Shown piece by piece: positions 3,765-48,183 of a DNA stretch of 64,000 bases. A program made the translations under genes and the position numbers. Under the pieces are notes generated by a model. That model was given only the letters and a program-made list of their open reading frames with translations, made no database searches and was not told the DNA's origin. Each line of letters begins with the position of its first letter. Within the stretch, counting starts at the first letter, position 1. The DNA is from Raillietiella orientalis (taxonomy: Eukaryota): positions 124,001 through 188,000 of the forward strand of contig JAYWIR010000026.1 of NCBI GenBank assembly GCA_036172245.1, given 5' to 3'.

Positions 3765-3892
3765 CTGAAGGAGACGTTGATCAGCGCATTCCTCCAGCAA
3801 GAGCGCGAGTAGGAAAGAAGAGAGGGTTGGAGGTTCATGCGACCCAAAAGCTCCAGCAGTAGCTTCTGGTCCACGCAGTCGAACGCCTTGTG
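3765..3892 (-). mobile_element. RT fragment of a host LINE, starting at HKAFDCV
   Basis: Minus-strand HKAFDCVDQKLLLELLGRM...WRNALINVSF. Confidence 0.85.
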
Positions 3893-5265
3893 TGCTCCAG
3901 GGTGGACGCGTTTTCTCGGTGCTCCTCGTGCCAGGAAGTCTCCCTCAGTGCAAGCGTCGTGTGGTTCGGTGGTCAATCAGGCAGCGATGCCTGACGCGAC
4001 CATTAGAGATGGCCAGGGGGCAGCGGAAACGCCGCCCTTAGAGGCGATGGAGAGCCAGGGGGCGGCGGCAACGTCGTCCCCAGAGGCGATGGAGGTGGGG
4101 GCATCCGCCCCCACAGAATCAGGCCCCGCTGCAGCGCGGGCGTGGAGCGCCGTTGTGTCGGCGCCATCGCCTGCAGCCGCGGCGGAATAGTCGGCCTATG
4201 TGGAGGAGGGGTACAACCCCTCATTGTTCCACAAGGTAGACAATTTATATTCTTTAGAGAGCGCGCGCGCCTTCTCGAAGGGCATGCGCGCTCTCGATTT
4301 GAAAGAGGAGCTCAGCGCTATGACCATCCGCAGCGGGGGTCAGTACGTTGAGGTCATCAGCAAACAAGCAGAGCTGACCCAACGACTGCTTAAAACCCCC
4401 GTGGTGATGGGGACGCGCAGGCTCCTCCCTATTACGGCGGACCGCAGCATGGTGGTCCACCTGTTAGGTGTTACCGCGCGGATGCGCAAGGAACAGGTTC
4501 GCGCTGCGGTGGAGAAATACGGAACGGTCAACGCGCAGTGGACAAAAGTTAGTCCTTCCGAGGACTACAAGGGGCTGCAACACGGCTTCACTGCTGCGCG
4601 CGTGACCGTTCGGAACGGCTGCACTCTTTTCCACAAACTGGTGGTCGAAGGCGAAACCGTCGACCTCTGGTATGTGGGGAAGCCAAAATACTGCGGCTTC
4701 TGCAATACGTCGGGTCACCTCAAAAAGAAGTGTCCCAATGTGCAGTGCCAAGTATGCGGAACCATGGGACACACGAGGGAGGTGTGCTCTAGAGCAGCAG
4801 TGCGGGTGGTTTCCAAGAGAAACCTTAAAAAACGTGCCCGGCTTCTGCAGAAAAGGCTGACGGCGAAAGCTGCCGCGAAGGCTGTGCCACCCGCGCCCAA
4901 GGCCCAGGCCGCACCCGAGAACACGGCGAACAACGCCGAACAAGTCGAGGGAACAAGCCAGGAGCCTGGGTGGCAGGTGGCTACGGCCAAAAAATCAAAG
5001 AAGGAGAGGAGGATAAAGAAAAAGCTCGCGCACCGCCAGAAAAAACAGCAGGCAAGCGAGCAAATTCAAGAATGCAGCGTTGTCGTCGAGCGTATTCCCG
5101 ACCGCTGCGAAAAAGAACTCGCCGCTACCGACGAACACCCCTCTGTTGACTCTGTCAACAGCGAGGGGAGCGAGCCGGCGGCGGCGTCCGTCATCGACAC
5201 CACCATCGATGACGTAGCCTTCGCGCGAGACGCGGAGGAGCTGGCAGCCTCGTTGCAGCCAGAAC
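3893..5265 (+). mobile_element. Family G LINE, copy 1 (5' UTR and ORF1 N-terminal part, interrupted by family A)
   Basis: 5' GGACGCGTTTT at 3904. ORF1 has two CCHC knuckles (CGFCNTSGHLKKKC, CQVCGTMGHTREVC). Homologous to 30779-32145 and 47013-48183. Confidence 0.9.
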
Positions 5266-5369
5266 CCTCCAAGGCCAGTAGGAGGACGTGTTTTTCCTTC
5301 ACTTCCCAAAGAGTAGTAGGAAAGCGCTTTTTCTTCTGTGTGGTGTTTTGTGTACATCGTCGGTGTCCA

Positions 5370-7118
5370 ATGGCCACGACGCCAGAGGACACCGCGATGG
5401 AGGTGGGAGTGGGGGAGGCTAGTTCGCCCCCACAGCCTACTGGAGCAGGGGCAGCCGCCCCGGATTCATCCCCGGCCACGCCGAGGACATGGAGCGCCAT
5501 GGTGGCCGCGCCCAGCGCAGAAGCCATGGCGGAGATGGCCGCATACAAGGCCTCCGGGTACAAGCCTTCGCTTGTGTACCAGGTAGGCAACTTGTTCGAC
5601 GGCCAGACAGCGCGCGCCTTCAGCAAAGCGTTGAAGGACGCGAATGTCACAGAGAAGGATCTGGACGGCCTCTCCGTCCTCAGCGGCGGGCAGCGGGTCG
5701 AAGTGGTCTGCAAAGATGTCACCTTGGCTCACCGCCTTATCCATGCGCCGCTGAACGTAGACGGCCGCAAGATCCTGCCAGTATCTATGGACCGCTCCGT
5801 GGTGGTCCACATGACTGGCATCACCAGCCGCATGACGCGGTCAGCGGTTGGTGAGGAATTACGGAAGTACGGTGAGGTGCACGCACTGTGGCCGAAACCC
5901 TCCATTTTCGACGGCTTCGATACCCTTTTTGGTGGGCAGGCTGCAGCGCGGGTCAGCGTACGGGAGAATTGTGGGCTTCCCCACAAACTACAGGTGGCGC
6001 AAGAAAACGTCGACCTGTGGTATGTAGGGAAACCCCGGTATTACGGGCATTGTGATACCGTGGGACACCTACGTAAAAGGTGTCCCAATATACAATGCCA
6101 TTTGTGCGGGGAGCGGGGCCACGTTCGGCGCGTGTGTCCCAAACGCCCCACCCCGGTTCCCCCTGCCGCGAAAAAAGCGCAGGGGAAACGTGCTTCAATG
6201 GTCTCTAGACCTAAAGTAGAAAAGGGCCAGCACAAGCTGCCAACACCTCAACCTCCGGCGCGTAAGCCGGAGGATAAACCTTCTGAAACGGTGGAAGGCG
6301 AAGAGGGATAGCAGCTTGTAGAGGCCAGAAAGCAGAGGAAACTCCCACCCGCGAAGAGCAAAGAGCGCAAGACGGCCGGTGAGCCGAAAAAACCCGGTCC
6401 GCGCTCGAAAACTTTGCGCGAGTGCACGGTGGCACTGGAACGAATCGTCGTTCCCGAGATTGCCACCTGGAGCGTCGATCCTCCCCTTGCCGTTTCCGCT
6501 GCACCCGAGGCTCGCGACGGCGAACCCTCTGTTTACACAGAGGGTGAGCCGCGCGACATAGCGGCGGTCGAAGCCGCGGACGCCGCGTTCGCGCAGGCGG
6601 CGGAGGAGCTCGCGGTCACGCTGGCCGAGCGTGAGAACCCCTCGCGCAAGGCCGTGCGAAGGCCGGCCCTGGCGAGGAAGGCCCCCAAAGGTGAGTTAGA
6701 CCTGGGGACCGGAAGCACATCCTTCTCCTCGGAGGCACCCCCCAGGAAGTCGGGACGCAAGTCCCAGAAGCCCAGGAGGCGCCTCCACTCCACCAGCGAG
6801 GAGAAGACGGAAGCCGTCGCCAGCGTGGGAAATTTGGAGGAGGAATTCCCACGCTCGGAAGCCGTCGATGCGGCCACCCCCATGGAGGAGGGTGAACAAT
6901 GGGGTCAAGTCCCCCCTGCAGGCGCCGACCCTGAACAGCCCGCCCCCATGGAGGAGGGTGAACAGGTAGGCGCGACTCCACCTGCGGGTAATCCGGCCGA
7001 CGCGCCGGCACAGATGGAGGAGGGGGACCAGGTGCCTTCAGCACCTGACCCCCCTGCTCCACCTAGCGTCCCGCCCCAGCAGGTGGCGGACGCCGCACTG
7101 CCATCTTCCCAGGAGTAA
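5370..7118 (+). pseudogene. Family A ORF1 (gag-like, two CCHC zinc knuckles), one in-frame TAG at 6309
   Basis: Colinear with ORF 28923-30545(-), where the same codon is TGG. Knuckles (C/Y)GHCDTVGHLRKRC and CHLCGERGHVRRVC. Confidence 0.9.
6878..7060 (+). repeat. Three 66-bp tandem repeats encoding P/QMEEG(E/D)Q...P in the ORF1 tail
   Basis: ATGGAGGAGGG recurs at 6882, 6948 and 7014. Also present in the copy at ~28980-29165(-). Confidence 0.85.
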
Positions 7119-10100
7119 CACCTGGGCTCGCCAGTCGCCGTCGGATTCGCGCGGCCTGTTGGAATGTCAACGGGCTGCGCGACGACGGTAACAGGCGAGA
7201 TACGGCCGACACCCTGCGTGAGCTCGACCTGGCCCTGCTGCAGGAGATCCACGTGATCACCGCGGCAGACGCCCAGGAGATCGAGACGATCGCGGGGGGT
7301 CGGCTGTATTGCCGGTGCGGCCTCCGCAACACCTGCGGGGTCGCGTTCTTCGTGAAGCCGGCCATCGACGCTGCCGTGAAGGGCGTGCGCTTCGATGACG
7401 ACGGTCGGGTCGGTCAGCTGACTCTCGGCTGGTCGGACTCGATCGATCTGATCGTCACGAATGTGTACGCCCAAACCGGTCAAAAGGGATACAGCAACCG
7501 TACCAAGCTGCTTGAATCCTTGAAGCGCGACTGGCTGGCGAACACGAGCGTGCGGAATGCTCACCTGATAGCGGGAGATTTCAATCTCCACCTGCTAACA
7601 GGTGAGCCGGAAACACAGGTGAACGCGATGAACGAGTTGTGCGCCGCCATGCGTGCGCGCAACTTGTTTGCAGGTGAGAGGGGAATGGTCCGCAGCATCG
7701 ACCACGTCTTCCTCGACGCTGACCTGTGTTCACGGGTCGGCAAACGGGGGAGGGTTGCGTCAACGTTGCCGGACCCTTCCCGGTTAATTTTCGAGATGCG
7801 GCCTCGCGACAAAGGACCGCCATCCAGGGACTGGCGTCTGCCAGAGGACTGGACACGACTCTCAGGTGCGAAGGAACACCTTCGCGAAAACCTGAGAGGC
7901 GTCACGCTCCGGAATCTCCAAGACTGGGACCTTTTTAAGGAATCGGTCCGGGAATTCTGCGAGCAGTTCCCCCTGGGCCGCCTGCCCTCCGGATTCGGCG
8001 AGGGTCCTCGCAAGCATCGGGCCTATTTACAGTCCCGTAGGTACGAGCGAACCCCTAACTTCCGTCGCCTGGCCGAGTACCGCGCCGGGGCCGAACGCCA
8101 AGCCTGGCAATCCGGGTCGGCCAGCTTGCTGGACGACCAGGGCCGGGAATGTACGTCCCCGGCGTCGGTATGGCATCTCGTGCGGAGTTATTATTCCTCC
8201 CTTTACGCCAGGGCGCCCCCGGATCAAGATGCCTCTCGGCTCTTGCATCCCGATGGTGCCCCGGCAATAGGGGAGGAGGAGTCGTTAAGCCTCGATGAGC
8301 CTTTTACCACCGGCGAAATTCTCGCCGGTATCAAAAGGCTCAAGAGGCGGAAAGCTCCAGGGGAAGACGGCTTGCCCGCGGAGTTTTATCAGAGCTTCGC
8401 GGAAGAGCTGGCACCCCTGCTGCTTCAGCTGACAAGGCTGATCCGAGACGAATGCGAAGTTCCCGCCTCGTTTCGGTCAGCCAGAGTGAGGCTCCCTCCG
8501 AAAGGGGGAGACCTTAGGAATTTGAACAACTGGCGTTCGATCACGATTGTGAATACGGACGCCAAGTTGGTTGCCGGGCTATGGGCTTCGCGTCTGGGGC
8601 AGATGGCAGAATCCATTATTAGCCCGGAGCAGACATATGCTGTTCCCGGGCGAAGTATGGATGCCAACCTCTTCTTCGCGAGCACGTGGATGCACGCGCA
8701 GAGGTGTCAAAAGGAAGGAAAAGGAAAAATCGGCAACCCCACTTTGGGGCCGCCAGCAGGGCAGGGAATGGACTCCCGGGCGGGGAAGGGGGCCTTAGCG
8801 CTCGCAGTCGATCTCCATAAGGCGTTCGACTGTGTTGACCAGGGGCTTTTGTTGGAGCTCCTGGGTCGCATGGGCTTCCCACCCTCCTTGATCAACTACC
8901 TGCGCTCCTGCTGGCGCCATGCGATAATTTCCGTCTCTTTCAGCGGTCAGAAGGTGCATGGCGTGCCGGTTCGGCGGGGCATCAGGCAGGGAGATAGCCT
9001 GAGTCCCCTGCTCTTCAGCACCTACTTTGAGTTGGTGCTGAGAGCCTACAGAGTGACTTTGGCCTCCTTGCCTAGCTCGTGTCCCGGCACGCCCGCCGTA
9101 GCAGCCTATGCCGACGACCTTCTGCTCCGGTTACCTATCTCCACCCCGGCGAAGGCGGTCGGAGACTTCTTCGATCTGCTCAGCCGTGGGACCGGACTGC
9201 AGGTCAACAGGGCGAAGTCGTCGGTGGTGCCAGTAGGTGCGGCGTGGGCAGGGCAGCAGGACTGGGTCCGTCTGGGGATCCCCACGGCGAGGTGCCTCAA
9301 GTACCTTGGTGTGCCGTTGGGTGACTACTCCCCTGCGGAAGCGTGGTCCAGCTGTCTTCAAAAACTCGAAACGGTGATCGGCCCGTTCCTGGAAGGCAAG
9401 TTTCACTTGCCGGAACGGGCCGCGGTTTGGAACGCCTTCGCGGCCCCCATCCTCCGCCCCTTGCTTTCTGTTTGCCCCGCCCCCAGAGAATGCAAAAAGA
9501 GGACGAAGGACCTCCTCCGCATCGCCCTTTGGGGCAAGGGGAGGCCCCGAGTCCCTCTGCAGGACTTGTGCGCTCCGCGTCGGGACGGCGGCCTTGGCCT
9601 CCTGACGCTGGAGCGCGGGGAAATCCAGCTGCGGTGGCGAACCCTCGCCATCGCAGCGAAGATGTGGAGCACCCCTTGGTGCGTTCCGGCCCGCCACCTC
9701 GCTAGGCGTGTGTCCCGATGCGAAGGACTCGCGTCGTTTCTTCTGTGCCCTGGCCGGAAGATCCGAAGATGCGGCCTTATGCTCGGACGCATAGCAACCT
9801 TGGCGAAGACGAACGGTTGGATGGTTTGTGGCCCCGCCAACTCCTCCGCCTGGTTAGGGGAGTCTGCTGGCACATGGGCTAAGCTGAACCGGAGGAGCGA
9901 AAACCACATGAACTGCCTGCGAATCGGCCCATACGCCAACCGCACCCTGCGGGAAATACTGGAATTTCCTCGGAGTCGCAGGTGGGCGTTGACGACCCCC
10001 CTTGCTACGGCGATGCCCTACCTCCTGAGGGCGCTTCAGGATTGCCAGAAGCCGAGGTGGCAAGTCACCGGCCAGATCGCAGGCAGGGAGAAGGTGTTAA

Positions 10101-10711
10101 GCGGCTGGACCACAGGAGAACTGGCGGACGCCACGACCCCGAGCGTCCAGCCGCGTGGACTAATGAGATGGGGCGAGCTGCTCGCCATCCCTACGGATGT
10201 GCTGAAGTGGCCCCCGGTATTAAAGGACTCCAGGATCCTGCCCCTTAAGTGGCAAGAGTCGGCGTTGCTTTTGTTGCACTGGGGTCTACCCTGCAACGCG
10301 CGCCGCTTCCACTGGACGAGGGGAGCTGTGGATCCTGCGTGTGCCAGGTGCGGCTAGCGGGAGTCGCTTCCCCACCTAATTGTGGATTGTGCTGCCATCC
10401 GACCCCTCTGGGAACGGTTCGGGGCGACCCTAGGTCTCCCTACGGGCAGCACCCCCAGAGACGTTCTTCGGCCCCTCTTCGTGAAGGACGCACTGCAGCC
10501 AGCCGCAGCCATCGCAGCCTTGTGCTGTGTCCGTGGCATCGTGGCAGCATGGAGCGACGCCAATAACGAAGGAGTGGGTCCACACGCGAGGGATGTCGTC
10601 CCATACGCCCAACGCTTCATGCGGAGAGCTGCCGGATGGCCCCAAGTGGGGAATATACGGACGGAACTCAAGGGCTTCCTTCAACGGATGGGCCCTCCTC
10701 ACAGCGTTTAG
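7118..10711 (+). pseudogene. Family A ORF2: APE endonuclease, reverse transcriptase, CCHC finger (~1197 codons; one TAG at 10355)
   Basis: Motifs WNVNG, LQEIH, GDFN, IDH, KAPGEDG, DLHKAFD, GIRQGDSLSP, YADD, KYLG, CARCG..ESLPHLIVDC. Confidence 0.95.
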
Positions 10712-10933
10712 TGATCCCTTCCCTGCCCTCCAACTTCTTTTTGTCTGTTTATGTTTTTTATTTTTCTTTTTGTTTTATCCCCATCCCCCTTTGCTGCTGA
10801 GGAACGCTACGCTGGGCTGCGTCCCGGCGTCCCGGCAGGTCCAGTGCATATGGCCGTGAGCGGAGCCTTGTACCGCGGATGTAGAGTTGTTTTTTTTTGA
10901 AAAAAAAAAGCCCCGGGCGTACCCGGGTGTAAA

Positions 10934-12116
10934 CCTCCAACGCCAGTTGGAGGACGTGTTTTTCCTTCACTCTTCAAGAGTAGTAGGAAAGCGCATTCTA
11001 GTGTGTGGTGTTTTGTGTACATCGTCGGTGTACAATGGCCACAAAGCCAGAGAACACCGCGATGGAGGTGACAGTGGGGGAGTCTAGTTCGTCCCCACAG
11101 CCTACTGGAGCAGGGGCAGCCGCCCCGGAATCATCCCCGGCCACGCCGAGGACATGGAGCGTAATGGTGGCCGCGCCCAGCGCAGAAGCCATGGCGGAGA
11201 TGGCCGCATACAAGGCCTCCGGGTACAAGCCATCGCTTGTCTACCAGGTAGGCAACTTGTTCGACGTCCGGACAGCGCGCGCCTTCAGCAAAGCGTTGAA
11301 GGACGCGAATGTTACTGAGAAGGATCTGGACGCCCTCTTCGTCCTCAGCGGCGGGCAGCGGGTCGAGGTGGTCTGCAAAGATGTCACCTTGGCTCACCGC
11401 CTAATCCATGCGCCGCTGAACGTAGACGGCCGCAAGATCCTGCCAGTATCTATGGACCGCTCCGTGGTGGCCCACATGACTGGCATCACCAGCCGCATGA
11501 CGCGGTCAGCGGTTGGTGAGGAATTGCGGAAATACGGTGAGGTGCACGCACTGTGGCCGAAACCCTCCATTTTCGACGGCTCCGATAGCCTTTTTCGTGG
11601 GCAGGCTGCAGCGCGGGTCACCGTACGGGAGAATTGTGGGCTTCCCCACAAACTACAGGTGGCGCAAGAAAACGTCGACCTGTGGGATGTAGGGAAGCCC
11701 CGGTATTGCGGGCATTGTGATACCGTGGGATACCTACGTAAAAGGTGTCCCAATATACAATGCCATTTGTGCGGGGAGCGGGGCCACGTTCGGCGCCTGT
11801 GTCCCAAACGCCCCACTTCGGTTCCCCCTGCCGCAAAAAAAGCTCAGAGGAAACGTGCTTCAAAGGTCTCTAGACCTAAAGTAGAAAAGGGCCAGCACAA
11901 GCTGCCAACACCTCAACCTCCGGCGCATAAGCCGGAGGATAAACCTTCTGAAACGTTGAAGGCGAAGAGGGATGGCAGCTTGTAGAGGCCAGAAAGCCGA
12001 GGAAACAACCACCCGCGGAGAGCAAAGAGCGCAAGACGGCCGGTAAGCCGAAAAAACCCGGTCCGCGCTCGAAAACTCTGCGCGAGTGCACGGTGGCACT
12101 GGAACGAATCGTCGTT
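10934..12116 (+). mobile_element. Family A copy 2, 5' part (head-to-tail with copy 1), internally deleted
   Basis: GGACGTGTTTT at 10952. ORF1 from ATG 11035 is near-identical to copy 1 and breaks at ECTVALERIVV. Confidence 0.9.
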
Positions 12117-12122
12117 AAATCG

Positions 12123-14699
12123 AGAGTGAATCCGGGAATGTCGCGGATTCCTTCCGCTCAGCGAAGGTGCGTCTCCTGCCGAAAGGCGGAGACTTGCGTC
12201 AACTTAACAACTGGCGTCCGATCACCTTGGTGAACTCGGACGTCAAGTTGTTTTCCAAGCTGAGGGTTGCGCGGTTAGGAAGTATCGCGGAATCTGTGGT
12301 GAGCCCGGAACAAACCTACGCGGTTCCGGGACGATCCATGGAGGCGAACATCCTTTTCGCGCGTACATGGTTGCAGCTGCAGGAAGTTGTGGCGTAGCAA
12401 AGCCAGGCTGCTACGAAAGTCACTGCCGCAGGCAAGAAGAACAGGCGCCGACGGCAGAAGGGAACGCCAGGTGCCTTGGCGGTCGCGGTCGATCTCCACA
12501 AGGCGTTCGACTGCGTAAACCAGAAGCTGCTTTTGGAGCTTATGGAACGCCTTGGGTTCCCGGCGCAACTCCTGCTGTATTTGCGCACGTGCTGGCGCCA
12601 CGCGCTAACCTGCATCACTTTTAGCGGCTACCGCGTGTATGGTATTCCCGTTCGTAGGGGCATCCGACAGGGCGACAGCTTAAGCCCGTTGCTCTTCAGC
12701 ATCTTCTTTGAGTTGGTGCTAAGAGCATACAGGCTGACGCTGTCTTACTTGCCAAGCTCCTGCCCGGGAACGCCTGCCGTGGCCGCCTACGCTGATGACC
12801 TGCTTCTTCTGCTCTCCATGTCCACCCCGGCGTCCAGTGTCGAGGATTTCTTCGACCTGATTCGTCGGGGAGCGGGCGTGAGCTTGAACAGAGAGAAGAG
12901 CGTGGTCGTTCCTGTGGGTACGTCGTAAGAGGGGCAGTCCGACTGGATCCGCCTGGGGATTCCCACGGGCGGGTACTTTAAGTACCTTGGCGTTCCGTTG
13001 GGCGCTTTCGGCGCAGCCGAAGCGTGGGCGGACTGTCTTCAGAAAGCAGAGTTGGCCATCAGCCCGTTCTTTAACGGCAAGTTTACCTTGCAGGAACGGG
13101 CGACTATTCTGAACACCTTTGTGGCCCCCCTCCTCCGTCCCCTGTTTTTTGTTTTGGACCCCCCCTATGCGGCAGAACAGCGCGCTCAGCGCCTGCTCAG
13201 GAACGCTCTGTGGGGTCCGGAGAGATCCAGGATCCGCCTTAAAGATTTGTCAGCTCCGCGTCGGGATGCTGGTTTGGGTATCTTGACAATGGAGCGAATC
13301 GGACTGCAGGTGCAGTTCCGACTGCTGGCACTGTGTGCCCAGCTATGGACATCCCCCCTGTGTGTGCCAGCCCGCATTCTCCTGCGGAGATGCGCCGGCA
13401 GCGGAGGATTTCTCTCGCTTTTGCCGGGCACTCAATACAGGAAGCTGGGTTTCGGGTTTCCATTGCGGCAGTTGACCGCACTTGTGGAAGCTCACTCGTG
13501 GATCTCCTGCCGCCCAATGAACTTTGAAGCTTGGCGGCAGGAGTCTGTTGAATCCTGGGCGGCGTTTCAAGGAATACGCCCTAAAGATCTTCGCCTTCTG
13601 CGTCAATTCTTTCCACGATCCTTGGAAGAAGTACTGCAGGACGAGGTGAAGTTTTCTACCCTGGCTGCCACGCCTCTTGCCGCAGCGCTGTCTGCCCTCA
13701 GGGCAAGAAACGACAGTTACCAACCGGCGAGGTGGGAGGTTTTCTGCACGATAGCGGGAAAAACCAAAATCCTTGGCGCCTGGAAGACGAGTGAGTTGGC
13801 GGACGCCGCCACTCCTCGTGTTACTGCAAAGGGACTCCTCCGATGGTCAGAAGAACTTGCTGTCACCCCCGAAGAACTTGTAGTCCCTCCACAGTGTATT
13901 GACAGTTCGCTGCTCCCCCTTGCTTGGAAACAAGCCGTGCTGCTTTTCGTTCACTGGGGTTTTCAGTGCAACGAGCGTTGGCATCGTGACTCCGGGGGAC
14001 TTGCGTCTGCGAACTGCGTTCGGTGCGGATCGACGGAGTCGATTCCGCACCTACTTCTGGACTGCGGTGTCCTACAAGGACTGTGGCGTAGGCTGGCAAC
14101 AGCACTAATGCATCCCGTGGACACCGCAAGAGACTTGCTGCGACGATTCTTTACGCCGAGCGGGCTGTCACTAAGCGCAAGGATTGCAACAATCGGTTGC
14201 ATACGCGCGATAGTTTTTGTCCGCCAGGCGTTGGTAATCAACGGACAGCACCAAGAGGTAATCAGCAAAGTATTCTTCTACATGGGAGCATTTGCTAGAT
14301 GGCCTCATTTGACAGAGGAGACAAAAAGGAATCTCGCCGCAATACACCGCCGGTTTACACACCCTCAGCAGCGGCCAACCCGGTGATCATTGCCCTACCC
14401 TCCATAAACTAATTTTGTATTTTCTTTATACACCCGCGTCCCCATAGGCTCCGGAACATTTGAGGTGCTCATCGTTTAAATCCCCGTGAGTACGGAGCCT
14501 AACCAAAAACCCTTTTCCCTTTCCTCCAGTTTTTGATTTTTGTTTGTTTCCCCTCATTCCCCCCACGCTGCGAGCGGTTTGTTTACCAGGCCTGCGTGCC
14601 GGTAATTTTTCTATGTTCTCTGTCGTTCTGTTGGTTGGGGACATTGTCCCTGACCAGTTTATTATTATTAATAAACGCCCCGGCGTGACCGGGTGATAA
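12123..14699 (+). mobile_element. Family C LINE, 3' half (RT to 3' end)
   Basis: RT motifs DLHKAFD, RQGDSLSP, YADD. ORF2 stop at 14386. Terminal AATAAACGCCCCGGCGTGACCGGGTGATAA at 14670-14699. Confidence 0.92.
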
Positions 14700-15040
14700 A
14701 TTTCAATCTCCGCCTGCTAACAGGTGAGCCAGAAACACAAGAGAACGCGATGAACGAGTTGTGCGCTGCCTTGCTTGCGCGCAACTTGTTCGCGGGTGAG
14801 AGGGGAATGGTCTGCAGCATCGACCACGTCTTCCTCGACGCTGACTTGTGTTCACGGGTCGGCTAACGGGGGAGGGTTGCGTCGACGTTGTCGGACCATT
14901 CCCGGTTAATTTTCGAGATGCGTCCTCGCGACAAGGGACCGCCATCCAGGGATTGGCGTCTGCCGGGGTATTGGACGCGACTCTCAGGTGCGAAGGAACA
15001 CCTTCGCGAATTCCTAAGAGGCGTCACGCTCCAGAATCTC
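14700..15040 (+). mobile_element. Family A APE remainder, resuming at (GD)FNL
   Basis: Matches 7578-7918. Confidence 0.9.
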
Positions 15041-18000
15041 TCTTTAAACCCGGTACGCCGGGACGTTTATTATTTCAAATAAACTCATACAAACTGTGAC
15101 TGGACCAGTAGTCCAGCCACGCCCTGGAAACATTCAGCCTGCCGGGCTAGCGGTGCACAGACCGGCGCGGTCGACCTCGGCAGCAGAGGGGAGGGGGAAT
15201 CAAAGAAAAAGGAAACAAAGAAATAAACACAACCGGGGAGGGAGCGGGAAGAGATCACTGTCTGCTGGGAGGGTCCGTCATCCTCTGGAGGATGCCGGCA
15301 AGCTGTCGCTGAATGGTGGGTTCCAGATGAAGCCATCGCGTCGCCATCCTCAGGAAACGAGCGGCGTACACGGTGGCGTCGCTGTCGCTGGACCCTCCCG
15401 TCGCTTTGTTCCAGGCCACGACGATCCCGCGTAGGCAGCATAGGGCTGCAAGCGAGGCCGCCGGGGGCAGAGCATCACGGACCAAGAGGGGGCGTAAAGC
15501 GTCTCTGGGGTTGCCTCCGAGGATCTCCAGGGCTGCGGCAAAGCGTTCCCACAAGGGACGGAGGGCAACACATCCCACTAGCAGGTGGGGGAGGTATTCC
15601 CTCTCCCCGCACTTACACAATTGGGGTTGACACCCCCCGCGTCCAGTGGTGTCGGCGGGCATTGCAGAAGAGGCCCCAATGCAACACCTGGAGTGCCGAC
15701 TGTTGCCACTTCATATGGAGGGTGCGCGAGTTCATGAGCACCGTGGGCCACTCCAGATGTTCCTTCGGAACATCCAGTAGCTCGCCCCAGCGCAAGAGTC
15801 CGTGTGGGGTGGTCCTCGGGGTCGCAGCGTTGGTGAGCTGACCCGTTCTTCAATCCCCGATCTTCTTTGCCCTGCTGGCGATCTTGACAGTAACCTCCCA
15901 TTGTGCCGCGACGTCGCTGCCCAGATGCTCCCGTAGGGTAGGCAGTACCGCAGCAAGGGAGGTTCTTTGAGCCCACGCTCTCCTTCGGGTATCCTCGAGG
16001 ATTTCTCGGAGCGTGCGATGGGCGTGAGGCCCGAACAGAGCTATTCGCTCATGTTACGGGCTCTGCTCCTGAGTCATCGCCCACGTGCGGACGGTTTCCT
16101 GCAACCAGGCAGGACCGTTCGCGGGGCGTACGAGGATCCGCTCCGAGTTGGTCTTTACCAGCTTGGCCGCCCTAGGAAGCTGAAATCCGCAGTGGCAGAT
16201 GGCGCTTCGGAGTGCAAAGTAGGACGAGAGTCCCGCATTGCCGGTGGCCCGCTCGACACAGAGACGTGCAGGGAGGTACCTGGCGGTGCACCAATTTTTT
16301 GCCATAAAGGCAACACTCCGGAACTGGAGCTGAAGCTCCAGCCTCTCCAGCGTCAGGAGGCCAAGACCGCCGTCCCGACGCGGAGCGCACAAGTCCGCGA
16401 GACGGATTCGGGGCCTCCCTCTGCCCCAAAGGGCTATCCTCAGTAGGTCTTTCGTCCTTTTCCCAGACTCTGCTGAGGGGGGGCAAACAAAAAGCAAGAA
16501 GCGAACGAGGGGTGACGCAAACGTGTTCCACGCCGCGGCCCGTTCCTGCAGGTAGAACCTGCCGTCCTGGAACGGGCCGATCGCCGCCTGAGCCTTCTGA
16601 AGGCAGCCGCACCACGCTTTCGCAGGGGAGTAGTCTCCCAACGGCACACCAAGGTAGTTGAAGTACCTCACCGTGGTGATCCCCAAACGGACCCAGTCCT
16701 GCTGCCCTGCCCACGCCGCTCCGCCTGGCATTACGAACGACTTCGCCCTGTTCACCATAAGTCCGGTTCCCCGATGCAGCAGGTCGAAGAACTCCTCGAC
16801 CGCCGTAGCCGGGGTGGACATAGGGAGCAGCAGCAGAAGGTCGTCCGCGTATGCTCAAACGGCCGGCGTACCGGCACAGTCGTGCGGCAGGTGCGCCAGA
16901 GTTCCCCTGTACGCTCTCAGTACCAACTCAAAGTAGGTACTGAAGAGCAAGGGGCTCAGGCTGTCTCCCTGCCAGATCACACGTCGCACCGGCACGCCGT
17001 GAACAGTATGCCCGCTGAAAGTAACATTGATTTGCGAATCGCGCCAGCTAGAGCGCAGATAGGCCTATAATGAGGCCGGGAAGCCCAAGCGTTCCAAATG
17101 CTCCAGCAGGAGATTCTGGTCGACGCTGTCGAATGCTTTACGCAAGTCGACACCGACCGCAAGTGCTCCCTCCCCTATCCGACCATCCGTCGCATGGCTG
17201 ACGGACTCACCGGAATTCCCGGTGCGCATCAAGCCCCTTTCGTGTTGGAGCTCTAGCCTGGTGGAAGCGAGGAACAGGCTCGCCTCCATGCTTCGCCCGG
17301 GAACAGCATATGTCTGTTCCGGGCTGATGAAGATGTTGGCAACCCGTCCCAGACGCTCTGCCCAAACCTTAGCCACCAACTTGGCGTTCGCATTCACTAT
17401 TGTGATGGGACGCCAGTTGTTCAGGCTCCTCAGATCTCCTCCCTTAGGGAGAAGCCGCACTTTTGACGAACGAAACGAGGCGAAAACGTCACCTGTCTCG
17501 CGTATCATCAAGGTGATTTGCTGTACCAGGGAGGTAAGCTGAGCCGCGAAAGTTTGGTAAAACTTCGCAAGCAGGCCGTCCTTCCCTGGAGCCTTGCGTT
17601 TCTGGAGCTTTCCGATGGCCAAGAGGATCTTGTCCATCGTGAAAGGCTCGTCGAGGGACTTTCTCTGCTCCTCCCCGATCGCTGAAGCGCCTTCCGGAAG
17701 CAGGAGTCGTGAGACGTTCCTCTCCGGAGGTGCCTTGGCATACAGGGAGGAGTAGTATCTTCGCAGCAGGCCGCGGATTTGGGCAGGTGCCGAGTGCTCC
17801 TGGCCCTGATCGTCCAGTAAGCTGGCCGATCCGAACTGCCAGGCTTGTCTCTCGGCTCCCGCTTTGTATTCCGCCAGCCTGCGGATGTCGGGCGTCCTGG
17901 CGTGACGACGGGCCTGCAGGTAGGCTCGTTCGTTACGGACCCCGGTCCCAAAACCCGTAGGTAGGCGGTTCAGAGGGAACTGGTCGCAGAACTCCTGGAC

Positions 18001-19197
18001 CAATCCTGGAGTGTCCGCAGCCTGGAGCTCAGTATGAACGTGCGGAGATGTTCCGCCGCGTCCGGAAGCTTCAGCCAGTCCCCTGGGAGGCGTCACGCTG
18101 ACGAGGGGGGGCCCCTGTCGCGAGGATGGATCTCGCGGACTAGCGGGCGATGGTCGGACAGCTCTTACGGTAACTTGCCGCGCCTGCCCACGCGAGGGCA
18201 CAGGTACTCGTCCAGAAACACGTGGTCAATGCTGTCTTCCATCCACGGTGCACTGGCCAACAGATTACAGGTGTGCACCGCCATGCACACCTCGTTGACC
18301 AGTTCACGCTAAGGATTCTGCTCATCTGGTTTCAGGCGAACGTTGAAATCGCCTGCAACCAGATGGGCATTCCGCACGCCTGCTTCGGTCAGCCAGTCTC
18401 GCCGGAGGGCAAGGAAAAACTCTTTCCTCGCCCTCCTGTTCATCAGGTCCTTGCCGCTCGGTGCGTACACGTTCGTGACGATCAGATCGATCGAGTCGGT
18501 CCACCTGAGAGTCAGCTGGCCGACACGACCGTGATCGTCGAACCGCACGCCCCGAGCCGCGGCCTCGACGGCTGGCCGAAGCAGGTAGGCGACACCGCAA
18601 CTTTTTACTCTCCCACACCTGTATCATAGCCGCCCTCCGGAGATCCGTTCGATCTCTTGCGCTTGTTCTGCAGAGATCACGTGGATCTCCTGCAGCAGCG
18701 CAAGGTCGTAGGACTCAAGAAGGGCGGCCATGTCTCGTCTCCTGCCGGCGTCTGTCATGCCGTTCACGTTCCAAACGGCGATGCGCAGACGACGGCGGGA
18801 GGAGATTCCCGGCATTACTGCTGGGAAGATTAAGGTGTGGGGGAGCCCTCCTCTTGCGAGGCGGGCGAGATGTCCATGGGGGTTTCGGCCTTCTCAGGCA
18901 CCTGAGGCACCTGTTCGGCCTCCACCCCCTCCATTCCCTCCGTGTCCGTGCGTGGGAGTCTCTCGGGCGACGGGACCCGAGAGTTTCCCACGCTCATGGC
19001 ACCCTCGCTTGCGGAAGCCATCTCTTCGCCTTCGACGGGGGAGACGAGCTTCCTTGGCTTTGTGGACTTACGTCCAGCGTTCTTGCGCGGTGCCGTAGAA
19101 ACGGAGGCTGCGCTTCCGGACTCCACCTCGGGGTCGGAAGTGGGGGACTCCTGAGGGGAGGCCGGAAGCCTTACGGCCTTCTTGCCAGCCTAGGAGG

Positions 19198-28100: not shown

Positions 28101-30778
28101 GCCAACACGGGTCAGTTCATGGTTGAACTGATTCCCGTCGCGCGCAGAAAGAAAACCAATCACCTTATATCGGAGAGCAGGTCTATAGCCTTGGGCTACG
28201 TATGCCCGCAACTCCGACTCGTCGAGTGGTTTCCCTTTGACGGCTGCAGTGGCAGCAACGTCAGCAAAACTCCTCTCCATTGGCGAGAAAGACGAAGTGG
28301 AGGCGGCCGTCGGTTCCGCGATTGCAGATCCGGATGCTGTTCCTCCAACTTCAGTAGCTTCAAGTTGGGTCGACATCGTCGTCAAAAGGTACGACGCCAA
28401 GATGAAGCAGATGAAAGCACGTAGACGAGAGCGAAGAAAAACACGTCCGCACTCGATTGAAATCTCCCGCTATCAGGTGAGCCTTCCGCACGCTCGTGTT
28501 CGCCAGCCAGTCGCGCTTCAAGGATTCAAGCAGCTTGGTACGGTTGCTGTATCCCTTTTGACCGGTTGGGGCGTACACATTCGTGACGATCAGATCGATC
28601 GAGTCCGACCAGCCGAGAGTCAGCTGACCGACCCGACCGTCGTCATCGAAGCGCACGCCCTTCACGGCAGCGTCGATGGCCGGCTTCACGAAGAACGCGA
28701 CCCCGCAGGTGTTGCGGATGCCGCATTGCCAGTACAGCCGACCCCCCGCGATCGTCTCGATCTCCTGGACGTCTGCCGCGGTGATCACGTGGATCTCCTG
28801 CAACAGGGCCAGGTCGAACTCCCGCAGGGTGTCGGCTGTATCTCGCCTGTTACCGTCGTCGCGCAGCCCGTTGACATTCCAACAGGCCGCGCGAATCCGA
28901 CGGCGACTGGCGAGCCCAGGTGTTACTCCTGGGAAGATGGCAGTGCGGCGTCCGCCACCTGCTGGGGCGGGACGCTAGGTGGAGCAGGGGGGTCAGGTGC
29001 TCTAGGCACCTGGTCCCCCTCCTCCATCGGTGCCGGCGCGTCGGCCGGATCACCCGCAGGTGGAGTCGCGCCTACCTGTTCGCCCTCCTCCATGGGGGCG
29101 GGCTGTTCAGGGTCGGCGCCTGCAGGGGGGACTTCACCCCCCTGTTCACCCTCCTCCATGGAAGTGGCCGCATCGACGGCTTCCGAGCGTGGGAATTCCT
29201 CCTCCGAATTTCCCACGCTGGCGACGGCTTCCGTCTTCTCCTCCTTGCTGGTGGAGGGGAGGCTCCTCCTGGGCTTCTGGGACTTGCGTCCCGACTTCCT
29301 CGGGGGTGCCTCCGAGGAGGAGGATGTGCTTCCGGCCCCCAGGTCTAACTCACCTTTGGGGGCCTTCCTCGCCGGAGCCGGCCTTCGCACGGCCTTGCGC
29401 GAGGGGTTCTCACGCTCGGCCAGCGTGACCGCGAGCTCCTCCGCCGCCTGCGCGAACGCGGCGTCCGCGGCTTCGACCGCCGCTATGTCGCGCGGCTCAC
29501 CCTCTGTGTAAACAGAGGGTTCGCCGTCGCGAGCCTCGGGCGCAGCGGAAACGGCAAGGGGAGGATCGACGCTCCGGGTGGCAATCTCGGGAACGACGGT
29601 TCGTTCCAGTGCCACCGTGCACTCGCGCAGAGTTTTCGAGCGCGGACCGGGTTTTTTTGGCTTTCCGGCCGTCTTGCGCTCTTTGCTCTCCGCGGGTGGG
29701 AGTTTCCTTGGTTTTCTGGCCTCTACATGCTGCCATCCCTTTTCGCCTTCCACCGTTTCAGAAGGTTTATCCTCCGGCTTACGCGCCGGAGGTTGAGGTG
29801 TTGGCAGCTTGTGCTGGCCCTTTTCCACTTTAGGTCTAGAGACCTTTAAAGCGCGTTTCCCCTGCGCTTTTTTCGCGGCAGGGGGAACCGTGGTGGGACG
29901 TTTTGGGCACACGCGCCGAACGTGGCCCCGCTCCCCGCACAAATGGCATTGTATATTGGGACACCTTTTACGTAGGTGTCCCACGGTATCACAATGCCCG
30001 CAATACCGGGGCTTCCCTACATACCACAGGTCGACGTTTTCTCGCGCCACCTGTAGTTTGTGGGGAAGCCCACAATTCTCCCGTACGGTCACCCGCGCTG
30101 CAGCCTGCCCACCAAAAAGGCGATCGAAGCCGTCGAAAATGGAGGGTTTCGGCCACAGTGCGTGCACCTCACCGTACTTTCTTAATTCCTCACCAACCGC
30201 TGACCGCGTCATGCGGCTGTTGATGCCAGTCATGTGGACCACCACGGAGCGGTCCATTGATACTGGCAGGATCTTTCGGCCGTCTACGTTCAGCGGCGCA
30301 TGGATTAGGCGGTGAGCCAAGGTGACATCTTTGCAGACCACCTCGACCCGCTGCCCGCCGCTGAGGACGGAGAGGCCGTCCAGTTCCTTCTCAGTAACGT
30401 TCGCGTCCTTCAACGCTTTGCTGAAGGCGCGCGCTGTCCGGCCGTCGAGCAAGTTGCCTACCTGGTAGACAAGCGATGGCTTGTACCCGGAGGCCTTGTA
30501 TGCGGCCATCTCCGCCATGGCTTCTGCGCTGGGCGCGGCCACCATGGCGCTCCATGTCCTCGGCGTGGCCGGGGATGATTCCGGGGCGGCTGCCCCTGCT
30601 CCAGTAGGCTGTGGGGGCTAACTAGCCTCCCCCACTCCCACCTCCATCGCGGTGTCCTCTGGCGTCGTGGCCATTGGACACCGACGATGTACACAAAACA
30701 CCACACAGAAGAAAAAGCGCTTTCCTACTACTCTTTGGGGAGTGAAGGAAAAACACGTCCTCCTACTGGCCGTGGAGG
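19198..30778 (-). mobile_element. Family A full-length copy 3, interrupted by family C
   Basis: Reverse-complement homolog of 5266-10933. ORF1 30674->28923. ORF2 28923->~19415, split at GDFN (28455/22547). 3' hairpin at 19204-19219. Confidence 0.95.
22548..28454 (-). mobile_element. Family C full-length LINE (~5.9 kb) with a 9-bp flanking duplication ATTTCAATC
   Basis: 5' GGACGTGTTTT at 28448. ORF1 ~28376->26454 (CEQCGKEGHCLDKC, CRYCKLSGHQLKTC; frameshifted). TAATG overlap, then ORF2 26454->22861 with a frameshift near 23815. GATTGAAAT at 22539-22547 and 28455-28463. Confidence 0.93.
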
Positions 30779-32145
30779 GTTCTGGCTGCAAGGAGGCTGC
30801 CATCTCCTCCGCGGCTCGCGCGAAGGCTACGTCATCGATGGTGGTGTGGATGACGGACGCCGCCGCCGGCTCGCTCCCCTCGCTGTTAACTGTGTCAACA
30901 GAGGGGTTGTCGTCGGTAGCGGCGAGTTCTTTCCGGCAGCGTTCGACAACGACGCTGCACTCTTTAATTATCGCGCTACCCTGCTCTTTCTTCTTCTGTT
31001 GGTAGGTGATTTTCTTTTCCATCCTCCTCTCCTTCTTTGATTTTTTGGCCGTTGCCACTTGCCACTCAGTCTCCTGGCCGGCTCCCTCAACTTTTTCGGC
31101 GTTGGTCGCCGGGGTCTCGGGTGCGGCCTGGGTCTTGGGCGCGGGTGGCACAGCCTTCGCGGCAGCTTTCGCCGCCAGTCTTTTCTGCAGAAGCCGGGCG
31201 CGTTTTTTAAGGTTTCTCTTGGAAACCACCCGCACTGCTGCTTTTGGGCACACCTCCCTCGTTTGGTCAATCGTGCCGCATACTTGGCACTGCACATTGG
31301 GACACCTCTTTTTGAGGTGGCCCGACGTATTGCAGAAGCCACAGTATTTCGGCTTCCCCACATACCAGAGGTCGACGGTTTCGCCTTCGACCACCAGTTT
31401 GTGGGGAAGAGTGCAGCCCTCCCGAAAGGTCACGCGCGCAGCAGTGAGGCCGTGTTGCAGCCCCGTGTAGTCCTCGAAAGGACTAACTTTCGTCCACTGC
31501 GCGTGGAACGTTCCGAACTGTTCCAAAGCGGCGCGAACCTGTTCTTTGCGCATTCGCGCGGTCACGCCTAACAGGTGTACCACCATGCTGCGGTCCGATG
31601 TACTGGGGAGAAGCCTGCGCGTCCCCATCACAACGGGGGTTTTAAGCAGTCGTTAGGCCAGCTCTGCATGTTTGCAGATGACCTCAACGTACTGACCCCC
31701 GCTGCGGATGGTCATAGCGCTGAACTCCTCCTCTTTCACATCGAGAGCGCGCATGCCCTTCGAGAAGGCGCGCGCGCTCTCTAAAGAATATGAATTGCCT
31801 ACCTTGTAGAACAATGAGGGGTTGTACCCCTCTTCCACATAGGCCGACAATTCCGCCGCGGCTGCAGGCGATGGCGCCGACACAACGGCGCTCCACGCCC
31901 GCGCTGCAGCGGGGACCGATTCTGTGGGGGCGGATGCCCCCACCTTCATCGCCTCTGGGGACGACGTTGCCGCCGCCCCCTGGCTCTCCATCGCCTCTGG
32001 GGGCGGCATAACCGCTGCCCCCTGGCCATCCCTGGTGGTCGCGTCAGGCATCGCTGCCTGATCGACCACCGAACCACACGACGCTTGCACTGGGGGAGAC
32101 TTCCTGGAACGAGGAGCACCGAGAAAACACGTCCACCCTGGAGCG

Positions 32146-34247
32146 CACAAGGCGTTCGACTGTGTAGACCAGGAACTCTTCTTGGAGCTCCTGGGTCGCA
32201 TGGGCTTCCCACCCTCCCTGATTTCCTACTTGCGCTTTTGCTGGCGGAATGCGATGATTACCGTCTCTTTCAGCGGTCACAAGGTCAATGGCGTGCCGGA
32301 GCGGCGGGGCATAAGGCAGGGAGATAGCCTCAGCCCCCTGCTCTTCAGCACCCACCTTGTGTTGGTGCTGAGAGCCTACAGTGTGACTTTGGCCTCCTTG
32401 CCGTGCTCGTGCCCCGGCACGCTCGCCGTAGCAGCGTACGCCGACGATCTTCTGCTCTTGTTGCCAATGTCCACCCCGGCAAAGGCGGTCGGAGACTTCT
32501 TCGATTTGCTCAGCCGCGGGACCGGACTGCAGGTTAACAGGGCGAAGTCGTCGGTGGTGCCAATAGGTGCGGCGTGGGCAAGGTAGCAGGACTGGGTTCG
32601 TCTGAGGATCCCCAAGGCGAGGTGCTTCAAGTACCTTGATGTGCCGTTGGGGGACTACTCCCCTGCGGAAGCATGGTCCAGCTGCCTCCAAAAAGTCGAG
32701 ACGGCCATCGGCCCGTTCCTGGAAGGCAAGTTTCACCTGCCGGAACGGGCCGCGGTTCTGAACGCGTTTGCGGTTCTTATCCTCCCTCTGGCTTTTTGTT
32801 TGCCTTTTCACCTTGGAAACCAAGAAAAGGACGAAGGACCTCCTTCATATCGCCCTTTGAGGCAAGGGGAGGCCTAGAGTCCCACTGAAGGACTTGTGCG
32901 CTCCGCGTCGGGACGGCGGCCTTGGCCTCCTGACGCTGGAGTGCGTGGAGAAGCAGCTGCGGTGGCGAACCCTCGCCATCGCAGCGAAGATGTGGAGCAC
33001 CCCTTGGTGCACTCCGACCCGCCTCTTGGCCAGTCGTGTGTCCGGGTGGGATGGACTCTCGTCTTTTCTTCTGAGCCGTGGCCGGAAGATGCGAAGATGC
33101 GGCCTACTGCTCGGGCGTATGGCAACATTGGTCAAGGAGAACAGCTGGATTGTTTGCTGCCCCGCCAACTCTTCCGCCTGGCTGGAGGAGAATATTGGAA
33201 CGTGGGCAGTGGTAAACCAGAGGAGCCACAAGACGTGGAATCGTCTCCGATGCAGCCCCTACGCCCGCTGCACGCTGCGGAATCTCCTGGAGAGTTAAGC
33301 AAGATGCATGTGGGCGGAGACGACCTACCTAGCCACGGCGCTGCCCTTCCTGAGGAGGGCACTTCACAGCAGCCGGACCCAAAGGTGGCAAGTCTCCTGC
33401 TGCATCGAGGGACGCGAGAAGTTGATCAGCGGCTGGACAACAGGAGAACTGGCTGATGCCACGACCCCGAGCGTCGAGCCGCGAGGATTATTAAGATGGG
33501 GCGAGCTGCTCGCCATCCCCAGGGATGAGCTGAAGTGGCCGTCTGTGATGAAGGAATCCAGGATCCTGCCCCTTAAGTGGCAAGAGTCGGCGTTGCTTTT
33601 GTTGCACTGGGGTCTACTCTGCAACGCGCGCCGCTTCCACTGGACGAGGGGAGCTGTGGTTCCTGCGTGTGCCTGGTGTGGGGAGCGGGAGTCACTCCCC
33701 CACCTTATTGTGGATTGTGCTGCCCTCCGATCCCTTTGGGAACGGTTCGGGACTTCCCTCGGGCTCCCTACAGGCAGCACCCCCAGAGACGTCTTTCGGG
33801 CCCTCTTCGTGAAGGACGCACTGCAGCCAGCCGCAGCCATCGCAGCCTTGTGCTGCGTCCGTGGCATCGTGACGGCATGAAGCGACGCCAACAACGAAGG
33901 AGTGGGTCCACAGGCGAGGGATGTCATCCCGTATGCCCAACGCTTCTTGCGAAGAGCTGCCGGATGGCCCCAACTGGGGAATATGCAGACAGACCTCGAG
34001 GGCTTCCTTTGACGGATGGGCCCTCCCCTTAGCGACCGGTGATCCCTTCCCTGCCCTCCAACTTCTTTTTGTTTGTTTCTTTTTATTTTTCTTTTTATCT
34101 TATCCATATCCCCCTTCGCTGTCGGGGAGTGCCACGCCGGGCTGCGTCCCGGTGTCCCGTCAGGTCCTGTGTTTACTTTCGTGGTGGGGCCTCGTACCAC
34201 GCATGCAGAGTTTACAAATAAACGCCCCGGGGGTACCCGGGTGATAA
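32146..34247 (+). mobile_element. Family H LINE, 3' half (from RT HKAFD to 3' end)
   Basis: RQGDSLSP, YADD, C-terminal finger. Distinct 3' UTR. AATAAACGCCCCGGGGGTACCCGGGTGATAA at 34217-34247. Confidence 0.9.
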
Positions 34248-47012: not shown

Positions 47013-48183
47013 ACGACGACGCTGCATTCTTTAATTTGCTCGCTTGCCTGCTGTTTTTTCTGGCGGTACGCGAGGTTTTTCTCCATCCTCCTCTCCTTCT
47101 TTGATTTTTTGGCCGTAGCCACCTGCCACCCAGGCTCCTGGCTTGTTCCCTCGACTTGTTCGGCACTGTTCGCCGGGGTCTCGGGTGCGGCCTAAGCCTT
47201 GGGCGCGGGTGGCACAGCCTTCGCGGCATCTTTCGCCGCCAGCTTTTTCTGCAGCAGCCGGGCGCGTTTTTTAAGGTTTCTCTTGGAAACCACCCGCACT
47301 GCTGCTTTAGGGCACACCTCCCTCGTGTGACCCATTGTGCCGCATACCTGGCACTGCACGTTGGGACACCTCTTTTTGAGGTGGCCCGACGTATTGCCGA
47401 AGCCGCAGTATTTCGGCTTCCCCACATATTAGAGGTCGACGGTTTCGCCTTCGACCACCAGTTTGTGGGGAAGAGTGCAGCCCTCCCGAACGGTCACGCG
47501 CGCAGCAGTGAGGCCGTGTTGCAGCCCCGTGTAGTCCTCGAAAGGACTTACTTTCGTCCACTGCGCGTGGACCGTTCCAAATTGTTCCAAAGCGGCGCGA
47601 ACCTGTTCTTTGCGCATTCGCGCGGTTACGCCTCACAGGTGGACCACCATGCTGCAGTCCGCCGTAGTGGGGAGGAGCCTGCGCGTCTCCATCACAACGC
47701 GGGTTTTAAGCAGTCGTTGGGCCAGCTCTGCATGTTTGCAGATGACCTCAACGTACTGACCCCCGCTGCGGATGGTCATAGTGCTGAGCTCCTCCTCTTT
47801 CACATCGAGAGCGCGCATCCGCTTCGAGAGGCGCGCGCGCCTTCTAATGAATAGAGATTGTCTTCCTTGTGGAACAATGAGGGGTTATATCCCTTCTCCA
47901 CATAGGCCGACAATTCCGCCGCGGCTGCAGGCGATGGCGCCGACGCAACGGCGCTCCACGCCCGCGCTGCAGCGGGGACCGATTCTGTCGCCTCTGGCGG
48001 AGACGTTGCCGCCCTTCCTGGCTCTCCATCGCCTCTGGAGGCGGCGTTGCCGCTGCCCCCTGGCCATCCCTGGTGGTCGCGTCAGGCATCGCTGCCTGAT
48101 CGACCACCGAACCACACGACGCTTGCACTGGGGGAGACTTCCTGGCACAAGGAGTACTGAGAAAACATGTCCGTCCTAGAGCG
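47013..48183 (-). mobile_element. Family G copy 3, 5' part
   Basis: GGACATGTTTT at 48172. ORF1 homologous to 3987-5088. Broken at ECSVVV by J. Confidence 0.9.

Follow-up and report, generated by a model that had tools for sequence, protein, structure and literature searches.

Site-specific long interspersed nuclear elements (LINEs) have been described for genes of ribosomal RNA (rRNA) and of small nuclear RNA (snRNA), for microsatellites and telomeres, and for a small number of DNA or long terminal repeat (LTR) transposons. The present analysis concerns a stretch of 64,000 nucleotides from Raillietiella orientalis (contig JAYWIR010000026.1, positions 124,001 to 188,000 of the forward strand), referred to as the window and numbered from its first letter, and within it the LINE GH, the 5' terminus of which is found next to the reverse transcriptase (RT) codons of other LINEs. 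The systems closest to it are the Tx1 and the Zepp elements. Tx1, which resides in the piggyBac-type element Tx1D, and the crocodilian Tx1 families, which reside in LTR retrotransposons, are target-specific LINEs with an apurinic/apyrimidinic endonuclease (APE), as described in the sections consulted of PMC4494074. The Zepp and ZeppL clusters of green algae are nests built of L1 LINEs only, which target existing copies, according to the parts consulted of PMC8226300, PMC3446292, and PMC9940879.

Judged from its sequence, the GH lineage probably integrates sequence-specifically, in antisense orientation, into the RT motif A codons of other L1-like LINEs, and would do so by independent insertions. 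The evidence is presented below, together with the points that weigh against this view and the alternatives to which they give room.

Junctions at the RT motif A codons

The 5' part of GH, termed G, is present in the window in three copies, A (3893..5270, +), B (30774..32145, -), and C (47013..48183, -). An earlier note, made from the letters of the window, had reported three antisense G junctions at 3892, 32146, and 48184; all of them are found there, with the host translations as given, and the observation of three antisense junctions on the same bond is confirmed. When the three copies are re-oriented, the G 5' terminus (YGCTCCAGGGTGGACG...) adjoins the antisense of ...HKAFD codons at 3892/3893, 32145/32146, and 48183/48184. 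In G orientation, junction A reads ...GTCGAACGCCTTGTG|TGCTCCAGGGTGGACGCGTTTTC (3892|3893, G on +), junction B ...GTCGAACGCCTTGTG|CGCTCCAGGGTGGACGTGTTTTC (32146|32145, G on -), and junction C ...GTCGACCGCCTTGCG|CGCTCTAGGACGGACATGTTTTC (48184|48183, G on -). Each terminus is immediately preceded by the antisense of CA(C)AAGGCG(T)TCGACTG. Host-sense translation of the flanks yields HKAFDCVDQKLLL for A, HKAFDCVDQELFL for B, and RKAVDCVNQGLFL for C.

Four uninterrupted RT genes (8816, +; 21309, -; 12497, +; 24750, -) were aligned with the junction copies and read ...AVAVDL|HKAFD across the same bond, with the DNA spelled GTCGATCTC|CA(C/T)AAGGCGTTCGA (CA(C/T)AAGGCG). The target site is written GTCGATCTC^CACAAGGCG. 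It is seen uninterrupted in a young copy of the D lineage at 12479..12513 on the + strand (GCGGTCGATCTC|CACAAGGCGTTCGAC), and a second exact copy is located at 24750 on the - strand. The break falls between the Leu and the His codon of V-D-L|H-K-A-F-D, one codon past the Asp of V-D-L, which we take to be the catalytic residue of motif A in non-LTR RTs. As a correction to the earlier note, the Asp codon itself belongs to the missing upstream side.

The use of this bond is confined to G. LINE 5' termini were recognized by a shared GGACGTGTTTT-type motif, which gave ten termini in the window, and all three of the G type lie at the motif A bond, compared with none of the seven non-G termini. Among the ten KAFD-coding sites of the window three are interrupted, in each case by G. 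If breakpoints were random over an ORF2 of ~3.3 kb in two orientations, the chance of two more of them falling on the same bond would, by our own arithmetic, be about (1/6600)^2.

The target had been considered one that hosts can hardly mutate, which is an overstatement. The amino acid motif is kept in all seven uninterrupted genes, the nucleotide site in two of them; the exact 13-mer GATCTC^CACAAGG is uninterrupted in the two young D copies only, and synonymous variants exist among the five genes that are devoid of it. Two copies of the E lineage, E#1 and E-B, have CAT for CAC, the F lineage has TGCAAAG (GATCTCTGCAAAG), and the X family has ACATGGAGAAGGCT; natural variants of the site beside CAC are CAT, TGCAAAG, and GACTTGCGTAAAGC. 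The RT motif A of GH itself, at 17119..17154 on the - strand, reads GGTGTCGACTTGCGTAAAGCATTCGAC (VDLRKAFD) and does not contain the target sequence, being spelled GTCGACTTGCGTAAAGCATTCGAC with GACTTGCGTAAAGCA as the site part. Self-immunity by selected recoding is not claimed, as the divergence of this RT from the target is about the same as its overall divergence from the hosts.

Anatomy of GH and independence of the insertions

G had been regarded as a family of its own. It turns out to be the 94-nt 5' untranslated region (UTR) and ORF1 of an L1-like, APE-type LINE of ~5.5 kb, the body of which resumes (19192->15041) past a nested insertion; the 3' part is the segment termed H. The parts of GH are the 5' UTR, ORF1, ORF1b, a decayed ORF2, and a 3' stem-loop with the tail ...AAACGTCCCGGCGTACCGGGTTTAAAGA, without poly(A). 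H (15041..19192, -) is the 3' part of the element to which G copy B belongs and comprises the rest of ORF1b, the decayed ORF2 with RT, the 3' hairpin, and the tail ...CCGGGTTTAAAGA. It begins exactly where G stops in ORF1b (...LQPEPS|AGKKAVRLPASPQE..., as compared with ...ENPSRKAVRRPALARK in the paralogue), and the E insertion 30773->19193 in copy B, which carries a D element, is bounded by G and by H, with a target duplication of the CCTCC type. Since G stops and H starts at the same ORF1b point around this E insertion, both are parts of one LINE.

The length of the leader is identical in all three G copies. In copy A, the ATG at 3987 opens a gag-like ORF1 with one stop at 4188, and the copy ends at the ORF1b site of the nested element E#1. 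Copy B extends from its 5' terminus at 32145 to the same ORF1b site, and copy C, with its 5' terminus at 48183, has its ORF1 cut at ~47013 by the antisense 3' end of an F-type LINE. Two Cys-His (CCHC) knuckles were recognized by eye in the translation of the G ORF1. The longest frame of the ORF1 type, 4191-6311 (+) with 706 amino acids, is a read-through over the G/E junction and the E leader and no real gene; ORF1 is present in it twice, at 45% identity, because E#1 (5271-10931) is nested in the ORF1b of G, and the Pfam zf-CCHC match falls in the second unit, which is that of E and not of G. H matches ORF2 codons 6-1090 in tblastn, and RVT_1 was detected in one surviving H ORF. An ORF2 with both an APE endonuclease and an RT is present in the sister elements E and D, according to the Pfam matches Exo_endo_phos and RVT_1; H itself is decayed.

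In each case the host is the downstream half of another LINE. Host A (3766..3892, -) is derived from an E-like RT gene, extends over 127 bp from HKAFDCVDQKLLL... to ...INVSFS, and is cut at 3765/3766 by a junction that does not originate from retrotransposition. Host B (32146..34248, +) is an E-like LINE, 84% identical to E, which is retained from HKAFD up to the hairpin that forms its own 3' end. This end is located, in antisense, within GFG codons that belong to a further ORF2 (34249-35165, -), and this authentic 3' junction implies that host B was a normal insertion that was split later. The ORF2 fragment it entered (35165-34249, -) seemingly belongs to an element with its 5' terminus near 36870 (36861-36875, -; ORF1 36848-36051). 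Host C (48184..50386, +) is a D-like LINE, 90% identical to D over 1200 nt, which is retained from RKAVD up to a 3' end located in GDFN codons.

Independent events had already been proposed on the ground that the downstream host proteins differ, and this proposal is borne out. The G copies are related in a star-like manner, with identities of 91.0% (A-B), 91.4% (A-C), and 91.5% (B-C); the private changes number 51, 49, and 44, and there is no excess of changes common to A and B (44 versus 49 and 51). The host flanks, compared over 127 bp, are 81.1% (A-B), 63.0% (A-C), and 65.4% (B-C) identical, the A-B value corresponding to 24 mismatches (binomial P=4e-4 under the 9% divergence of G). Over 1200 nt, host B is 84% identical to the E lineage and host C 90% to the D lineage, with 58.7% between the two. 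A maximum likelihood tree was calculated from nine rows, none of which was dropped, host A being too short for inclusion; hosts B and C are placed in different clades, and host C is joined with D at 100/100 support. The hosts represent two clades and not three families, as had been supposed, with A and B as sisters at 81%.

On these comparisons, insertions B and C are independent beyond reasonable doubt, and insertions A and B, in sister hosts, are probably independent as well. Independent copies occupy the identical target nucleotide. Given that three of three G termini versus none of seven others use the bond, that the G copies are star-like, and that the hosts are diverged, independent site-specific insertion is considered the best reading of the three junctions.

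The 3' end of GH and alternative explanations

At the sole GH 3' end of the window, the sequence is ...GGGTTTAAAGA|GAGATTCTGGAGCG, with a flank starting GAGATTC. This flank is an E-type ORF2 met in antisense at codon 284, the corresponding sequence of uninterrupted copies being ...AGTCTTG|GAGATTCC; the flank covers codons 171-284 (14700..15040, +) and ends in ...GGAATCTC, a look-alike of ATCTC^CA. In host sense, AATCTC^CAAGAC at the 3' end and GATCTC^CACAAGG at motif A have in common the ATCTC^CA heptamer, its phase, and the antisense orientation. The likeness of the two sites speaks for sequence specificity, ATCTCCA being present 18 times among 128,000 strand positions.

Several findings weigh against site-specific insertion of GH. 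A simple insertion should leave the GH 3' end followed by the antisense ...AVAVDL upstream half of the host (GAGATCGAC...). A tblastn search of the window revealed no ORF2 fragment ending at codon 583 (...AVAVDL) on either strand; the host halves are three downstream and none upstream, and it is only 5' junctions of G that are seen at the bond. For the D and E lineages, though not for GH, one target shows the two junctions together with a defined duplication or deletion. The 3' flank of copy B is from a different E copy (92-93% to E) and not from host B (84% to E), and with its flanks mismatched in this way, one has to assume either that two GH copies recombined or that the intervening DNA was lost upon integration. 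The 3' parts of copies A and C were lost within the nest. In addition, all G/H copies are decayed, with 1, 1, and 7 stop codons over the first 380 codons of ORF1; hosts A and B are sister copies, so that the independence of A and B is judged on 127 bp only; and junctions unrelated to retrotransposition do exist, at 3765/3766 with CTG microhomology and at 12117-12125 with a 9-nt filler.

Regarding these latter two, the former joins a codon-89 fragment of an ORF2 to codon ~627 of host A, and the latter joins E ORF1b to codon 456 of D via AAATCGAGA. Contigs of ~300 bp from sequencing run X1 (Logan; 0.21 of sampled words) were compared with positions 3400-10900, where 22 of 437 were at least 99% alike; among the loose ends listed, a joint 3694->8792 was present in one contig (side 41). 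A fixed target deletion of 900 bp, spanning codons 284-584 of one host, was considered for GH copy B and discarded, as its two flanks are from different E lineages.

The missing upstream halves are what would be expected if the motif A bond (ATCTC^CA) were a point of recurrent breakage or recombination to which G 5' ends became joined, the specificity residing in the break and not in G. The occurrence of the GH 3' end at the ATCTCCA of another element, the mismatched flanks of copy B, and the presence of other junctions with microhomology or filler could be accommodated in the same way. We nevertheless consider this improbable. The bond is used by G-type termini alone (three of three, versus none of seven others), and the end that is joined is always the exact, full-length G 5' terminus. 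Two exact sites have moreover stayed uninterrupted in the young D copies, and in the sister lineages insertions are complete and flanked by target duplications, which is the hallmark of integration by target priming.

Still less probable is that one ancestral composite of a host RT fragment and G spread through segmental duplication or 5' transduction (read-through), with the flanks diverging or being gene-converted later. In its favor, A and B are alike in architecture (E-like fragment, G, and E in ORF1b), BLAST aligns 3765-7586 with 32273-28455 at 93.7%, and the short length of host A, 127 bp, would suit a transduced flank. Copying as a unit would, however, have left uniform divergence, whereas the identities between the arms containing copies A and B are 81.1% for the host flank, 91.0% for G, 94.7-97.2% for the E copies, and 96.8% for the D copies, which excludes a single segmental duplication. 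Furthermore, G lacks an excess of A-B similarity, hosts B and C match different clades over more than 2 kb and up to their own 3' ends, and gene conversion would need to end precisely at the junction. The order of nesting agrees with these ages, the hosts being oldest, followed by G, E, and D, and arms of like architecture would be expected from recurrent nesting at specific sites. Two special forms, namely that A and B are one duplicated event or that they are the arms of a fold-back inversion via GAGAT microhomology, were rejected on the same unequal, family-wise divergence and the same lack of A-B excess in G.

That the roles are reversed, the hosts being 5'-truncated LINEs inserted beside pre-existing G 5' ends or inversions of the twin-priming type, is hardly credible: although 5' truncation and 5' inversion are frequent in L1-type integration, three truncations at one nucleotide in two clades, each exactly at the G terminus, would be required, the 3' ends of hosts B and C lie at targets of their own lineages (GFG and GDFN codons) away from G, and the inverted segments come from lineages other than GH, the RT of H being 58-70% alike to the hosts, with an identical breakpoint in three copies.

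Proposed integration route, sister lineages, and comparison with known systems

If GH is a site-specific element, its endonuclease would nick the sense strand of the host at GATCTC^CACAAGG, and the ...ATCTC-3'OH end would prime reverse transcription of the GH RNA, the conserved 3' stem-loop of which probably serves recognition by the RT. The full-length cDNA would then be joined at the opposite bond, whereby the GH 5' terminus would come to adjoin antisense ...CCTTGTG. As a conserved coding site common to LINE clades that are ~59% alike, the target would allow one element to reach several rival lineages. The outcome would be a nest consisting of LINEs only, in which insertions are kept away from genes.

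Such a nest is what the window contains. Positions 1 to ~58,200 are LINE nested in LINE (~58 kb), and no LINE-like character is seen in the last ~6 kb: between 58.2 and 64 kb, neither similarity to LINE proteins nor a repeat within the window was found, and Pfam analysis of 55-64 kb gave nothing meaningful, with one faint match at chance level (16 bits versus a cut-off of 36). The last match of the 5' motif (58205-58220, -) possibly belongs to the outermost element of the nest, and the edge of the cluster may be located here. All lineages begin with the GGACGTGTTTT motif, 6-16 nt from the 5' terminus, and end with a 3' hairpin of the CCCGGG-N4-CCCGGG type (AATAAACG-CCCGG(G)-loop-CC(C)GGGT), followed by a lineage-specific tail of 4-7 nt and no poly(A). 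Hairpin ends are located, among others, at 10904-10936, 14673-14702, 34220-34250, 46986-47015, and 15068-15040 (-).

The sister lineages likewise recur at fixed points. E#1 (5271..10931, +), which is separate from G, is a full-length nested LINE with ORF1, ORF1b, and an intact ORF2 of 1096 amino acids (7067-10357; Exo_endo_phos APE and RVT_1). The solved structure closest to the E ORF2 is human L1 ORF2p (E=5.6e-47), and a protein search with it yielded three matches, the best of which, P0001, is 67% identical and has an uninterrupted AVAVDLRKAFD. The E lineage is inserted in sense in the ORF1b of GH (junctions 5270/5271, 30774/30773, and 19193/19192), with a CCTCC-type duplication. In the arm of copy A, two E copies are arranged head to tail with a copy of the duplication between them (10931-10939), the second E 5' end being at 10939; such a tandem pair is what repeated use of one site would give. 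A full-length copy of the D lineage (28454->22548, -) interrupts, in sense orientation, an E-type ORF2 at its endonuclease GDFN codons and is flanked by the 9-bp target duplication ATTTCAATC at 28463-28455 and 22547-22539. The D 3' junction at GDFN recurs at 14699/14700 and, in the older D-like host C, at 50386/50387, which makes three in all. The lineage of host B, E2, has its 3' ends antisense at GFG codons (~codon 311) of two ORF2s (34248/34249 and 51484/51483); these inserts are 90.4% alike, their hosts 65.6%, and E2 is beside G a second lineage whose site is fixed and entered in antisense.

Some further elements of the nest may be mentioned. Two 3' ends of the F lineage (~47013 and ~54925; 92% alike) adjoin the similar antisense flanks GACGACGCTG and GAAGACGCCTG (GA(C/A)GACGC-type), one in the ORF1 of G and the other in an ORF2 near codon 249. 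The 5' terminus of a Y LINE adjoins, in antisense, an F-type ORF2 near codon 452 (...ATL|MRET...; 44557-44574, -), an arrangement of terminus and gene like that of G, found at this further site in a single case. A shared site at ORF2 codon ~455 (12124 and 44569) was considered and dismissed, as the junctions are 12-15 nt apart and one has a filler. The X-family LINE at 37937-~43000 is distant and has an uninterrupted TDMEKAFD.

Evenly balanced, in our judgement, is the wider view that each of these L1-like lineages aims at one fixed nucleotide of its own, within conserved coding motifs of related lineages, in the manner of a ring, and thereby builds LINE-only arrays. The sites would be RT motif A, endonuclease GDFN, the GFG codons, and the ORF1b site; G would insert into D-like and E-like elements, D into E, and E into G, with the motif A of G itself spelled differently. 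Arrays of the kind that mark algal centromeres would be assembled and renewed in this way.

If GH is indeed aimed at the RT-core codons of its rivals, these codons would constitute a new class of LINE target, and competition of transposon versus transposon would be implied. A testable mechanism would also be at hand for the formation and confinement of LINE-only clusters of the Zepp kind, which are the putative centromeres in green algae and in which new copies would land only in old ones. With the short target GATCTC^CACAAGG and naturally resistant variants, the specificity of the endonuclease is directly testable. Neither the G 5' terminus nor antisense KAFD codons followed by the 5' motif gave a match in metagenome scans. 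No LINE with a fixed target in the RT codons of other LINEs was encountered in the literature consulted, which did not include the original Zepp papers.

With the Tx1-type elements, as far as the sections consulted go, GH has in common that it is an APE LINE found at a fixed point inside another mobile element, with 5' junctions that are precise and full-length and with a target that is repetitive and thereby 'safe'. Its target differs in being the coding sequence of a catalytic-core motif in related LINEs, entered in antisense and common to several LINE clades. GH also differs in having a 3' stem-loop and neither a poly(A) nor a microsatellite tail; its likeness to the Tx1 or L1 clade is one of features.

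Like Zepp in the accounts consulted, the LINEs of the window form a localized cluster of nested copies, a likeness of architecture, with the L1-likeness inferred from the human L1 ORF2p match only. Zepp and ZeppL, on the other hand, are described there as tandem arrays of 5'-truncated 3' ends, of one family in Chlamydomonas, whereas several lineages with their own sites and with full-length copies are present here. A fixed nucleotide or coding-motif target was not found in the parts consulted of the Zepp/ZeppL accounts, including the 2025 CENH3/ZeppL preprint, the original Zepp papers (Higashiyama 1997, Yamamoto 2003) being outside this scope.

The R1 and R2 LINEs of ribosomal DNA would be comparable in the sequence-specific nicking of a conserved multicopy target and in the reuse of the site; their target is an RNA gene of the host, with both junctions documented, while that of GH would be a transposon gene, of which the 5' junctions are seen. 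In the choice of a conserved coding target across diverged hosts, GH would finally resemble homing endonuclease genes and inteins, the hosts in the present case being 59% alike and sharing a 17-mer. Unlike these, GH would spread by retrotransposition, the host gene is destroyed without any splicing out, and synonymous escape from the target is evident.

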